DNA of 64,000 nt from a phage, in the sequence record PV805638.1, one strand, 5' to 3'. Under the pieces are notes generated by a model, which did no database searches, was not told the origin of the DNA, and was given only the letters and a program-made list of their open reading frames with translations. Below, one piece after another: positions 60,014 through 64,000 of the stretch. Each line of letters opens with the position of its first letter. The stretch's first letter is position 1. The translations under genes and the position numbers were made by a program.

Positions 60014-61624
60014 TCACACAATGTATGAACGTAGTGGGTTAACACTATCATCTTCTTCCTCATCCCACATCGGGTCACCCTTGTTATCCACCAGAGTCAT
60101 GCCTGCTTGTGGTTTCCAAGGATTGAGATAACCCAGCATGGAGATAGTATCAATACAGTCATCCTTACCTTTTATTCCATTAATGGTAGCTAGTTTAATC
60201 TGGCCCATGAACAGACCCATAATAGTTGTATCTCTCAACTCTTCCGGAAAGTACATCTTACCAGCTTTGAACCATGGAACTACCAGGTTAAAGCGTGACA
60301 GTTTAGAGGTTACAGGACGGATGCCAGGCTTACCACCCTCAGAGGATGCAAAGTTAAAGAAGACATTACGGTTAATCATTTCTTTCTGAAGGAGTGAAAT
60401 GAATCCACCTTGCTGTCCTGTAATTTCGACACCAACGTTTTGTGGCTGGTATTCCTGAACCAGACGGAAGAGGTCGTCGAAGTTCTTATCCATAAGCTGA
60501 CGATTAGCCACACCATCAACCCAGAACCAATCTCCATTAGAACTATAAGCCCAAACTGATATGACGCTGTAGTCACTGGTCTGTTTCTCCGAGGTAGCAA
60601 AGTCAGTTGTAATGTAATAGTTGTAGCAGGACTTCATCTTTAACAGTTGCTGTCTGCTGTACCATTTAATCTCACTATCCTGAACAAGACGTTCATCTTC
60701 AGAACTAATACGAAGCATAAGTTCCTGGTAGAAACCAGCCAACTTACCGGTCTTAACTGCCATGTCGTATTGAGCTTTGATGTAGTCATACGAGAAACGG
60801 TCATCCCATGCACCCTGAAACTCTTCCCTACTACATGGGAACTTCTCACACACGGGCCATACGTTGACATCCCATGCACCGGACTCTACTGCTTCAATGA
60901 TGATGTCTTCCTTATTAAAGGGAGTACCATTGAAGATTACTTTACGACGTGTCGGGTCAAGAGCATGGTTCACACCCTTATAGACGGTATCCTTAATAGC
61001 TTCCATACTTGTCTTAGAATTAGCATCACCATCACTAATCAGGTCATCCAGTACACAAAGTGTTGGACGCTTACCATATATCTTCGTACCACGAAGACCG
61101 GTCTTAGCACCGAATAACTTAACACCCAGTCGATGTCCTTCTGCATTACGAAACTCTAACAGGTTATCTGTAAAAATAGCTTCGGGTATCCACTGTTGAA
61201 GGAACTCACTATTCTTATATCGGAACTCAATGTTCTTACGTGCAGACTTAGCACCGTTATCCATTGAGTCTGATACGTAAATCATTCCTTCTACCTTACC
61301 TAAACTTGGTAAGTGTCCAAACACTGCCAAGAACAAAGTAAAGTATTCCATGAACACAGCAGTCTTACCTGCACCACGGAAGCACAGATTAACTACATAC
61401 TGGTTCGGGGTAATCATCTTATCCAACATCTTCAGGTGAACTGGGGGTGTTTTGTTGGATTCACCTTCTTTGCCATTAACCAACTTAATAAAGTTGGCAA
61501 AGGTAAGAGCAAACTGACTAGGAACATAGTTAGAAGAATTAAGGTGGGAGTAGTCCACCTGGTCTAGCCATTCATCTAGTTCCTGCTTAATTAACTCAGA
61601 CATCTGTAATGTCCTCATCTGCAC
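60014..61624 (-). CDS. Terminase large subunit
   Basis: Walker A 'RGAGKTAVF', Walker B 'LCVLDDLISDGD'; 536 aa. Confidence 0.75.
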   Translation of the reverse strand: MQMRTLQMSELIKQELDEWLDQVDYSHLNSSNYVPSQFALTFANFIKLVNGKEGESNKTPPVHLKMLDKMITPNQYVVNLCFRGAGKTAVFMEYFTLFLAVFGHLPSLGKVEGMIYVSDSMDNGAKSARKNIEFRYKNSEFLQQWIPEAIFTDNLLEFRNAEGHRLGVKLFGAKTGLRGTKIYGKRPTLCVLDDLISDGDANSKTSMEAIKDTVYKGVNHALDPTRRKVIFNGTPFNKEDIIIEAVESGAWDVNVWPVCEKFPCSREEFQGAWDDRFSYDYIKAQYDMAVKTGKLAGFYQELMLRISSEDERLVQDSEIKWYSRQQLLKMKSCYNYYITTDFATSEKQTSDYSVISVWAYSSNGDWFWVDGVANRQLMDKNFDDLFRLVQEYQPQNVGVEITGQQGGFISLLQKEMINRNVFFNFASSEGGKPGIRPVTSKLSRFNLVVPWFKAGKMYFPEELRDTTIMGLFMGQIKLATINGIKGKDDCIDTISMLGYLNPWKPQAGMTLVDNKGDPMWDEEEDDSVNPLRSYIV

Positions 61625-62285
61625 GTACTAGTTTAGAACCAGCAATCTCTTTAGTAGGTACACCACTATTGATTGCATTAATTTGCTGTTCAGCTAATGC
61701 AGCAAGTGTTGCTTTGAGGTCAGTCAACCCAGAGTTCTCCCTCAAGTCCAGATTGATATTCGTTACCTGGTCTTTCGGTTTAGCTAAATGGGTAAGGATA
61801 GAGTTGGCTGCATCACATCTTACTTTCTCACTTACTGCTGTAGTCATCAGTTCAACCTGAACATTGATTGCCTTCTGATAATTATCTTGGTTCACAATCC
61901 ACACTGGAACCAAACTTTGTTCCATGATGAGGTTAACTAACTTACCCCTGTGGTAGGCAGAGACATAAGCACTAATATCTTTCTCACTGGTTCCTCGTGC
62001 TATAAGTTCTGCTTGTCGGTTAGGGAATGTTTTGAAGTAGGCTTCCTTATTTGAGTAGCCCATATGTTTGTAAGTTACATACTGAACTGCATTCATGTAG
62101 TCCTGTGTCTTAAACTTACCTTCCTTCATAACACCAGAGTAAGAGATGAAGTTTTCACGAAATGCTTCAGCAACCAGTTGGTCTTGGGTTATGTTGTTAA
62201 TTGTGTCTACCAACTCCTGGCTTACACTGTTCTTGAAGTTAGCAGGTAAGGCATTAATGATCTGCTGCTTAGTTAGCTCTCTCAT
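61596..62285 (-). CDS. Putative terminase small subunit / packaging protein
   Basis: 229-aa ORF immediately upstream of and overlapping the large terminase gene; assigned by position. Confidence 0.35.
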   Translation of the reverse strand: MRELTKQQIINALPANFKNSVSQELVDTINNITQDQLVAEAFRENFISYSGVMKEGKFKTQDYMNAVQYVTYKHMGYSNKEAYFKTFPNRQAELIARGTSEKDISAYVSAYHRGKLVNLIMEQSLVPVWIVNQDNYQKAINVQVELMTTAVSEKVRCDAANSILTHLAKPKDQVTNINLDLRENSGLTDLKATLAALAEQQINAINSGVPTKEIAGSKLVRADEDITDV

Positions 62286-62456
62286 ACTTATCTCTCTACA
62301 AAGTTATGTCTATTAACGAAGATTCTTTTCTTGGGGTGGGATACCCCTTGAAGAAACTCTAACACACAGTTACACTTTAGTCATGATATAGAAAAAGTTC
62401 ATGATACTAAATAGTATGTAATGTTCCGATGACCCTATTCCCAAAAGGAGTAACCT

Positions 62457-62747
62457 TTGAGAATCTATATGAGAGTCCAAGACTCCGAAGATAAATACTC
62501 AGAGATAGACCACACCAAAGCTGGCTTTATGGCTGGTGATATAATCCTTACCCATGACGAAGATACATTCCATGAATTAGCTGGGATGATGCTATTAGAG
62601 AACCGTCCTGGTGTTAAAGTCTTAGAACCGCAAGAAACTTACTCTTTAGAAAAGTCTATTCCATCTCTTGTGTTCTTTACAAAATTACCTCATAGTGTCT
62701 CCATCAAACGAAGCAAAGATAGCGTTCGGATGACGGTGATGATGTGA
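62457..62747 (+). CDS. Small protein, member 1 of a tandem paralog family
   Basis: TTG start with AAGGAG RBS; contains 'DTFHELAGMMLL' family motif. Confidence 0.35.
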   Translation: MRIYMRVQDSEDKYSEIDHTKAGFMAGDIILTHDEDTFHELAGMMLLENRPGVKVLEPQETYSLEKSIPSLVFFTKLPHSVSIKRSKDSVRMTVMM

Positions 62748-62896
62748 TTAGTCATACCGCCTAGTAGACAGTGGCGGTACTCGTAAAGAGTTAATAACTT
62801 CTACAGTCAGGGTTCCCCGGCTCCTTTCCTACTCCGTAGGTCTAACGGTACATAAGTACCTAGGGGGGTGAACTGACCCGTGATTGAAAACGGTAA

Positions 62897-62934
62897 GGGG
62901 TAGAGTCGAGAGGCTCTACCCCATTTCTTTTTCT
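62897..62934 (+). terminator. Hairpin with T-rich tract between paralog genes
   Basis: ggggtagag...ctctacccc stem with a gaga-containing loop, followed by atttctttttct. Confidence 0.45.
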
Positions 62935-62948
62935 GGAGGTATGCAATT

Positions 62949-63347
62949 ATGAGCATCTACGCTTTTGATATTGATATTACTGGAGTACTCCGTAAACAGG
63001 AACCCTATTACCTTGGGGAACCAGAAGTAGTAAGTAAGTTCACTACCCCGTGGCAAACAGTATTCTTACCTGACTGTGAAGAGTCCCATGAAGTAATTGG
63101 TTCTCTTTTCTTATCCAACCTTCAACTTAACACTGTGATATTGTCTGAACCAAGGGTGTATGACCTTACCTATTATGATGGGTTTAACGAGTTCTTCCCC
63201 GGCATACGCTTCTATAAGATAGATGGTTGGGAATTGATAGCTGACCATAACGTATTTAATAAAACACTTTCCATTTACTTCAGACCTATCCCTAAAGGAA
63301 GGAAAATCAATCATGAAATTCATAATGACTATCCCCAGTTTTGTTGA
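62949..63347 (+). CDS. Small protein, paralog family member 2
   Basis: GGAGG RBS; 'VFLPDCEESHEVIGSLFL' motif. Confidence 0.4.
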   Translation: MSIYAFDIDITGVLRKQEPYYLGEPEVVSKFTTPWQTVFLPDCEESHEVIGSLFLSNLQLNTVILSEPRVYDLTYYDGFNEFFPGIRFYKIDGWELIADHNVFNKTLSIYFRPIPKGRKINHEIHNDYPQFC

Positions 63348-63357
63348 GGGGGAATCT

Positions 63358-63618
63358 ATGTACACAACTGACTTCTCTTTAGAAGAGGTCATGAACAGCA
63401 ACCCCCAGCAAGTAATCCTGGTTCCTACCTTAGAGAATTATCACGAAGTAAGGGGTCACCTCTTCTTAGCAGGCAATGACCGTAAGGTGTATGCATTATC
63501 CCACCTTCTGTCTATACCAACTATAACGCTAATGACCCCATACCGTACATGCTGGTATCCGATGAATACCAATGGGGGAGTCGTTACGAGAATGGTGAAT
63601 ATCATTACTACTATGTAA
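63358..63618 (+). CDS. Small protein, paralog family member 3
   Basis: GGGGG RBS before the internal ATG at 63358; 'ILVPTLENYHEVRGHLFL' motif. Confidence 0.35.
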   Translation: MYTTDFSLEEVMNSNPQQVILVPTLENYHEVRGHLFLAGNDRKVYALSHLLSIPTITLMTPYRTCWYPMNTNGGVVTRMVNIITTM

Positions 63619-63629
63619 GGAAGTAGGGT

Positions 63630-63941
63630 ATGCACCTGTACTGCCTGATTAGCTATGCCACTACCTGTTATCTATCCCCGTATACAATGGATAATATCCT
63701 GGCAGGTAAGGGGAGTGTTGCCACCATCCTATATGAACCAAGTGAAGAAGCAGAAGTATTCCTGGGTACTTGCTTAATACTGGGGCAACCTATCCAGTTC
63801 ATTAAGATAGTGGATTCTGTGGAAATACCGGAGCACACCTGTGTGTACATACTGTCTGATAAAGAGCCTATGGTAGCTACTACTCTTACAGGTAGACTCA
63901 TTACCCTTTACCCTTCCTCCTATTTAACTGCTTATAAGTGA
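63630..63941 (+). CDS. Small protein, paralog family member 4
   Basis: 'ILYEPSEEAEVFLGTCLIL' variant of the family motif. Confidence 0.35.
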   Translation: MHLYCLISYATTCYLSPYTMDNILAGKGSVATILYEPSEEAEVFLGTCLILGQPIQFIKIVDSVEIPEHTCVYILSDKEPMVATTLTGRLITLYPSSYLTAYK

Positions 63942-64000
63942 GATAGCTACAATATTTTTGCATGTCGATTTCATCATAGCTATGTGTAGCTACAGTGGTG

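Follow-up and report, generated by a model that had tools for sequence, protein, structure and literature searches.

We analysed the right end of a 64,000-nt stretch of phage record PV805638.1 (hereafter the window), where four consecutive small genes, here called A, B, C and D, form a rightward array between the small-terminase-like gene gp69 and the right terminal repeat. The last 1.7 kb of the window shared 96.8% identity with Escherichia phage vB_EcoP_G7C (G7C positions 70056-71757); this G7C segment runs right up to the 1,160-bp right terminal repeat, whose first position is the equivalent of window 64001. By sequence, the window phage is a coliphage of the genus Gamaleyavirus (N4-like; Enquatrovirinae, Schitoviridae). 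Gene A (62457-62747, plus strand, 96 amino acids [aa], TTG start) is the orthologue of gp70 of G7C and N4 and belongs to phrog_7213; gene B (62949-63347, plus strand, 132 aa) corresponds to gp71 and phrog_9160, gene C (63313 or 63358 to 63618, plus strand, 101 or 86 aa) to gp71.1 and phrog_11661, and gene D (63630-63941, plus strand, 103 aa) to gp71.2 and phrog_12099. Identity to the G7C proteins was 94% for B and 99% for D. The N4 genes gp70 and gp71 and the G7C genes gp70, gp71, gp71.1 and gp71.2, which are annotated as hypothetical, are direct orthologues in the same position and on the same strand; in database records and in PHROGs they figure as ORFans with no relation to one another, the four PHROGs (7213, 9160, 11661 and 12099) being separate entries with no function assigned, and the window differs from these phages in that its gene C is frameshifted. 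Upstream of the array lie gp69 (61596-62285) and the large terminase gene (60014-61624), both on the minus strand.

An earlier note on this DNA, made from the letters alone, had described four consecutive plus-strand open reading frames (ORFs) of about 86-132 aa, each with its own ribosome-binding site (RBS). The ORF calls and the sequence bear this out: the four ORFs are present with those lengths, and plus-strand sites were found by inspection upstream of A (AAGGAG, 62445-62450), B (GGAGG, 62935-62939), C (AAGGAAGGA, 63295-63303, or, for the shorter start, GAGGGGGA, 63346-63353) and D (AAGGAAG, 63617-63623). Its statement that the genes are separated by hairpins holds for the gap between A and B and fails elsewhere, as 35 nt are shared by B and C (if C begins at its shorter start, 10 nt lie between them instead) and 11 nt separate C from D. 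The G7C record starts gp70 12 nt later, at an ATG equivalent to window 62469. We favour the TTG at 62457 as the start of A because the N-terminal M-R-[ILV]-[YF] strand is conserved across genera, being kept in gp70 of N4, KP8 and JWAlpha, and because the AAGGAG box lies 6 nt upstream; residues M-R-I-Y of window A form the first beta strand.

Relatedness and fold of the four proteins

Family alignments were built from the right ends of 21 related loci, whose plus-strand ORFs were clustered. Besides A to D, the arrays of relatives contain family A2 (phrog_16338; another gp70-like gene, which frequently closes the array), a further family A3, family E (phrog_12606) and family F (phrog_1365), an unrelated neighbour family with an HExxH motif that served as the negative control. 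Single-sequence BLASTP gave one convincing pair, B-C (37% identity over 35 aa, pairwise E ~5e-5), together with a marginal A-C match (E 0.04) and no match of D to A, B or C. Profile-profile comparison of the family alignments with hhalign gave P values of 1.8e-11 for A2-A3, 3.3e-10 for A2-C, 3.6e-7 for A-A2, 2.1e-5 for D-E, 2.5e-5 for A-E, 2.6e-5 for A2-B, 4.5e-5 for B-C, 3e-4 for A-B, 8e-4 for A-C and 2e-3 for B-D, while F gave P values of at least 0.2 against every family. Against a column-shuffle null (n = 150), the scores lay 6-23 standard deviations out and were exceeded by none of the 150 shuffles, except for A-D and C-D; z was 6-10 for A-B, A-C, B-C and B-D (B-D 6.0), 10.5 for D-E and 8.7 for A-E. 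Direct comparison of D with A or with C was not significant (8/150 and 40/150 shuffles scored as high, respectively), which counts against a common family of all four, and D is joined to the others via B, via family E and via structure.

Sequence searches with the families' hidden Markov models (HMMs) gave cross-matches that form a chain D-E-A-A2-C-B, including a match of the family C HMM to B at 7e-6, and the independent PHROG library reproduced the profile links: A and C both matched phrog_16338 (A2), B matched the PHROG of C, and D weakly matched phrog_12606 (E). The motif that the earlier note had seen in the four proteins fell in one register in every profile alignment and is real, being the strand-loop-helix core of one small fold; the common register comprises a strand, a P/H-D/E-x-E loop and a helix with an invariant glycine. 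When the four proteins were aligned over their full length, the M-x-[IL]-Y strand at the N-terminus and a further tyrosine also lined up, and Gly43 was invariant. The pairwise alignment that had been proposed as a check yielded significant similarity (by BLASTP for B-C and by hhalign for A-B, A-C, B-C and B-D), though no direct link for A-D and C-D. Profile comparison links each of the four significantly to another member family in the common register, A, B and C to one another and D to B and E. There is no reasonable doubt that A, B and C are paralogues, and D is a more distant member; that the four genes are paralogous and share one fold is, in our judgement, very likely. We define here the gp70/gp71 superfamily of Schitoviridae, comprising PHROGs 7213, 9160, 11661, 12099, 16338 and 12606, of which gene A is the most widely conserved member, B carries the superfamily core plus a longer C-terminal part, and D is the most divergent and fastest-evolving member.

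AlphaFold2 models computed with the family alignments scored a predicted local distance difference test (pLDDT) value of 90.7 and a predicted template modelling (pTM) value of 0.80 for A, and 82.9 and 0.73, respectively, for D. Both models show the same order of elements, b1 b2 b3 a1 b4 b5 b6 b7 b8, so that the fold would consist of eight beta strands and one helix, and in both the motif spans the third strand, the acidic loop and the only helix (residues 29-47 of A, 32-51 of D). Searched against predicted viral structures (BFVD), the two models retrieved largely the same ~20 proteins of 85-125 residues, all uncharacterised, all from N4-like phages and several per phage: Achromobacter JWDelta, JWAlpha and Axy phages, Klebsiella KP8, IME11, PhAPEC5, PhAPEC7, phi G17, EC1-UPM and Pseudomonas Zuri. 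The structural matches to Zuri were weak and were the only representation of Pseudomonas N4-like phages among the matches; some of the BFVD matches are, judged by length, families E and A2. It is very improbable that the motif is a chance or convergent generic strand-helix unit in four unrelated ORFans, as the weak single-sequence comparisons outside B-C, the non-significant A-D and C-D profile scores and the separate PHROG entries might suggest, and this reading is largely refuted already by the single register of all profile alignments at z 6-23 beside P values of at least 0.2 for neighbour family F, by the numerous cross-family HMM matches, by the same links in an independent library and by the shared element order and match list of the independently predicted A and D models.

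The best fold matches in the PDB were to the second RecA-like domain of superfamily 2 (SF2) helicases (DEAD-box, RecQ, Snf2), on which ~70-75 of the 96 residues superpose at 2.4-3 A, and the strand-loop-helix-strand unit of the array fold resembles the surroundings of helicase motif IV. Membership in that domain family was rejected, as the proteins carry neither helicase motifs IV-VI nor a significant sequence match or strong structural match. Searches of Pfam and NCBIfam detected no helicase motifs and no nucleic-acid-binding domains, and PDZ_2 in the Pfam search stayed below the cut-off (E 0.095). A profile search of PDB sequences, the HHpred-type check proposed in the earlier note, returned no known family; its polyubiquitin matches were an artefact of summing over repeats, in which no single stretch passed. 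No similarity to anti-defence or other known families was found in Pfam-A, NCBIfam or PDB sequences, with no dedicated anti-defence library searched.

RNA structure and possible control of the array

The gap between A and B (62748-62948, plus strand, ~200 nt) is nearly constant in length in all Gamaleyaviruses and is more stably folded than its shuffles (z -3.5). Just 3' of the A stop codon lies hairpin H1 (62755-62779, plus strand), in which TACCGCC pairs with GGCGGTA around an 11-nt loop; its helix is kept in 11 of 11 aligned sequences including N4 and KP8, with a compensatory change at the basal pair, and a hairpin akin to it was seen by eye in JWAlpha. The core of the structured RNA (62791-62932, plus strand), identified with a covariance model and RNAalifold, consists of a single-stranded box TTAATAAC-N-TCTAC, a long-range helix, a three-way junction, a hairpin CCCGT/ACGG and a terminator. 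In the three-way junction, helix P1 (CCCC/GGGG) encloses the hairpins CCTAC/GTAGG and GGTAC/GTACC and an unpaired box GCTCCTTT. The intrinsic terminator occupies 62897-62922 on the plus strand with a T-run to 62932, 3 nt before the GGAGG of B. Three single-stranded boxes are conserved, namely TTAATAAC-N-TCTAC, which is kept even in JWAlpha, (A/G)CTCCTT and GGTGAACTGA. By eye only, the CTCCTT box can pair with AAGGGG in the 5' flank of the terminator, and N4 shows the matching swap of CTCCAA with TTGGGAG.

RNAalifold placed seven helices in 11 sequences including N4 and KP8, with 93% pairing vs 35-50% in slid controls. The covariance model of the core (R1) matched ~30 N4-like loci, always on the strand equivalent to that of the window and including distant metagenomic contigs in which the protein HMMs find nothing, and the distance from the element to the terminase was consistent in the loci checked. 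In the R1 alignment, which is fitted to the model, 95% of cells pair (slid controls, 35-47%), and double changes occur at 30 of 32 pairs. Because G-U pairs are frequent, an RNA of the plus strand is argued for. Covarying structure, seen in alignments of which the larger was fitted to the model, and an intrinsic terminator directly upstream of the next gene, the combination that marks riboswitches and attenuators, were both found. Like terminator-based leader RNAs (riboswitches, attenuators) and small RNAs derived from 3' untranslated regions (3'UTRs), the A-B element has a multi-helix junction, invariant single-stranded boxes and a terminator 3 nt before an RBS; unlike the known leader RNAs, it has no Rfam family match. 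Rfam gave nothing at E <= 1 within 62748-62948, and no tRNA or tmRNA was matched in the gap. The A-B RNA may be a leader or attenuator for B onward, a small RNA derived from the gp70 3'UTR, or both.

Upstream of A, the divergent gp69/gp70 intergenic region holds an imperfect inverted repeat, GATTCTTTTCTTGGGGTGGGATACCCCTTGAAGAAAC (62321-62357, strand not assigned), which hardly varies in the upstream alignment, from the Gamaleyaviruses out to N4 and KP8; a TTA(C/G)ACTTTAG box at 62370-62380 is likewise almost invariant. The inverted repeat is probably a control region; for it and the box, a late or a middle promoter is among the conceivable roles. The conserved boxes were rejected as repeated promoter motifs, TTAATAACTTCTACAG and TTASACTTTAG not being enriched elsewhere in the 64-kb window, and a degenerate box pattern run against viral contigs gave mostly random matches, with 2 of 120 loci N4-like.

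All four genes would be transcribed rightward, as the early and middle genes are. Gene A would form its own transcription unit, ending in the structured RNA with its terminator, and the tightly packed or overlapping genes B, C and D would probably be reached by read-through of that terminator, the A-B RNA possibly gating their expression. A scan for sigma-70-type promoters found none on the plus strand upstream of A or B, and because there was none upstream of B, read-through into B-D is the simplest reading. We give this operon and read-through organisation about an even chance; it counts against it that both the promoter type and the read-through are read from the DNA, and that the scan covered sigma-70-type promoters, not those of N4 RNA polymerase II.

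Array turnover and the possible role of the proteins

Searched against 1.84 billion representative proteins, the superfamily profile retrieved only 18 matches, A-, B- or D-like without exception and 54-133 residues long. The family HMMs matched only the array ORFs in the 64-kb window, and they detected no members in N4-like contigs whose terminase was less than ~73% identical. N4, KP8 and Achromobacter phage JWAlpha each carry orthologues of A and B at the corresponding positions; in JWAlpha, a phage of another subfamily, gp87 is A (E 3e-19) and gp90 is B (1.5e-11), and the motif is visible by eye in gp88, gp89 and gp91. The array reads A-B in N4, A-B-C-D in G7C and the window, A-B-C-D-E-A2 in F22 and pSb-1, A-B-C-D-E-F-E' in IME11, A-B-C-D-A2-F in ECBP1 and ZQ2, and A, B, an A2-like gene, E and A3 in KP8. 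The copy-number comparison suggested in the earlier note accordingly revealed a variable array, of 2-7 genes among close relatives and of 4-7 genes in phages whose terminases are 97-100% identical. Family F, of ~104 aa and inside the array of many relatives (L003 1998-2312; L017 [KP8] 2301-2633), carries a conserved HE(V/L)NHF motif that looks like the HExxH site of zinc metallopeptidases; it has no Pfam match and is absent from the window and G7C.

Homologues of the small genes also turned up under misleading labels. Two Klebsiella phage records, OY979416.1 and OY978778.1, hold them under features named exonuclease, DNA primase or major head protein, which suggests that the annotation in these records is shifted or mis-transferred. 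Gamaleyavirus proteins like gp70 and gp71.2 (P0006, P0022, P0332) occur on a 2.76-Mb contig labelled Enterococcus faecium (EI543_13475, EI543_13490), probably through coliphage contamination or chimeric assembly.

The array ends in a conserved junction (63905-64000, plus strand) made up of its final codons (...YPSSYLTAYK and stop) and palindrome-rich DNA up to the terminal repeat, and in most relatives examined the array-ending gene finishes ...PSYLTAYK, whatever its family. In F22, ~20 nt are common to the 3' ends of D and A2 (locus L014, positions 1562-1645 and 2282-2373), and the arrangement of G7C and the window corresponds to a deletion between these two copies. The A-B-C-D array would be a reduced form: D and the gp70-like last gene A2 have similar 3' ends, and recombination between these would have produced it. 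More generally, an ancient tandem duplication would have given rise to the family, with gp70 (A) and gp71 (B) separate before the split of Enquatrovirinae and Rothmandenesvirinae, after which the array, bounded by the terminase genes on one side and the right terminal repeat on the other, would have gained, lost and exchanged members.

Across 13 Gamaleyaviruses, the ratio of nonsynonymous to synonymous substitution rates (dN/dS) was 0.24 for A, 0.21 for B, 0.15 for C and 0.27 for D, with dN of 0.12, 0.11, 0.10 and 0.31, respectively; the corresponding values for gp69 were 0.03 and 0.009. The four dN/dS values of 0.15-0.27 argue that A-D are real genes under constraint, yet changing 10-30 times faster than gp69. 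Identity among D proteins spans 50-99% within the one genus. The description of the genes as a locally duplicated, diverging family is therefore half right: they are diverged tandem paralogues (dN 0.10-0.31 vs 0.009 for gp69), but the duplication is neither recent nor local to this phage, as A and B are already present in N4, KP8 and JWAlpha.

In the DNA alignment with G7C, F22, phi G17 and ZQ2, a TT pair at 63488 is reduced to a single T in gene C of the window, a 1-nt frameshift. As it stands, C encodes 101 aa with an out-of-frame tail; the ancestral frame covers only the first ~59 residues (44 from the shorter start), motif included, and phrog_11661 matches residues 1-46 of the shorter form only. 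The displaced ancestral frame (63489-63626, plus strand) encodes the conserved C-terminus VCIIPPSVYTNYNANDPIPYMLVSDEYQWGSRYENGEYHYYYVRK, followed by a stop codon, and the family C HMM matches the stop-to-stop ORF 63486-63626 at E 1.4e-22. As the DNA 3' of the deletion is otherwise identical to G7C, the deletion is either very recent or a sequencing or assembly error in the TT run. The exact B, C and D proteins of the window had no match in a collection of 15 billion proteins; the window C allele is for this reason not known elsewhere.

The frameshift bears on one reading of the whole locus, namely that the array is partly decaying, with C a pseudogene in the window phage and the array dispensable baggage rather than a working four-gene unit. 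In keeping with it are the 1-nt deletion relative to four aligned relatives, a C-terminus unlike those of all 14 other family C sequences, the lack of the exact B, C and D proteins in the 15-billion-protein collection, and the previous loss of E and A2 from the G7C-type array. We consider decay doubtful, since the identity to G7C beyond the deletion points to a very recent change or an error and since C is intact and under purifying selection (dN/dS 0.15) in 12 relatives.

The best overall explanation, which we hold to be somewhat better than an even bet, is one Schitoviridae-specific superfamily of ~90-130-aa single-domain proteins that arose by ancient duplication and has an accessory binding role. 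Conserved residues are a glycine, hydrophobic positions and acidic residues, and because no catalytic residues are among them, the proteins would be non-enzymatic binding modules, each paralogue with a partner of its own, that serve an accessory host interaction (anti-defence, host modulation) after full genome entry. Counted for an accessory role were a gene content that differs between near-identical phages, rapid divergence, restriction to the lineage and the lack of conserved catalytic residues; in addition, Gamaleyaviruses have been reported to resist restriction-modification systems by a mechanism not known (PMC11990801). Such a host-interaction function, assigned here by analogy, as in the earlier note, which called families of this kind typical of host-takeover or anti-defence genes, is plausible though we would put it somewhat below even.

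We favour accessory binding modules over a core process tied to the location (DNA replication, processing of concatemers and the terminal repeat, or packaging), in which the paralogues would be subunits or stage-specific variants. A core role fits the constant positions of A and B beside the terminase genes and terminal repeat in N4, KP8, the Gamaleyaviruses and JWAlpha, dN/dS values of 0.15-0.27, and the fact that the only fold resemblance, a weak one, is to a domain of nucleic-acid enzymes. The Pseudomonas N4-like phage LUZ7 offers a further parallel, as its right-end cluster of 29 small ORFans (gp87-gp115) likewise consists of small rightward genes in a member of the Schitoviridae; since middle-stage transcripts were captured across this cluster, the LUZ7 authors suggest a replication-related function for it (PMC9163698). 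The cluster is much larger than the window array, and the likeness drawn here is one of position, orientation and gene size. A core role is nonetheless unlikely, given gene content that varies at 97-100% terminase identity, with C, D, E, A2 and A3 coming and going, the wide spread of identity within D, the lack of detected helicase motifs or nucleic-acid-binding domains, and an apparently broken C in the window phage.

Several points also weigh against accessory binding modules. No Pfam or NCBIfam family reached threshold for A-D, the sequence-profile search of the PDB gave no usable match, and the conservation of A and B across subfamilies, together with purifying selection, looks more like a core than an accessory function. 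N4-type phages inject the right genome end last (PMC4496689), which makes an immediate-early takeover role unlikely; products of this region cannot act in the first minutes of infection. The middle-stage transcripts over the comparable LUZ7 cluster likewise speak against such an early role.

Tandem paralogues near genome ends, beside terminal repeats, are known from the multigene families (MGFs) of African swine fever virus (ASFV) and the terminal gene families of poxviruses, in which copy number changes by recombination between paralogues and divergence is fast. The array resembles these in its terminal tandem paralogues, recombination-driven copy number and rapid divergence; it differs in its small scale of 2-7 genes, its bacterial host and its unrelated fold. 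That the array is a phage counterpart of these large-DNA-virus families, a set of diversifying one-fold binders that each neutralise a different host factor or defence, with B onward gated by a novel RNA (a signal-responsive terminator/antiterminator leader or a small RNA), is a speculative proposal that we rate as quite improbable.

Nothing in the literature searched assigns a function to, or describes paralogy among, N4 gp70-72 or their homologues. The genes were already on record as hypothetical proteins; the recognition of six PHROGs as one fold family in a variable tandem array was not found stated in that literature, nor was the conserved structured RNA that precedes the variable part. 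The protein finding is solid; the RNA element came as a by-product and is the greater surprise of the two. N4-like phages, which are common, have a place in therapy collections and resist restriction notably well by unexplained means; roughly half of their genes lack an assigned function. Uniting six 'unrelated' ORFan families as one expanding and contracting fold turns an anonymous block into a defined family that can be treated as a set, and the RNA before the variable part, detectable in more N4-like phages than the protein families are, gives a concrete handle on how the array genes are switched on.

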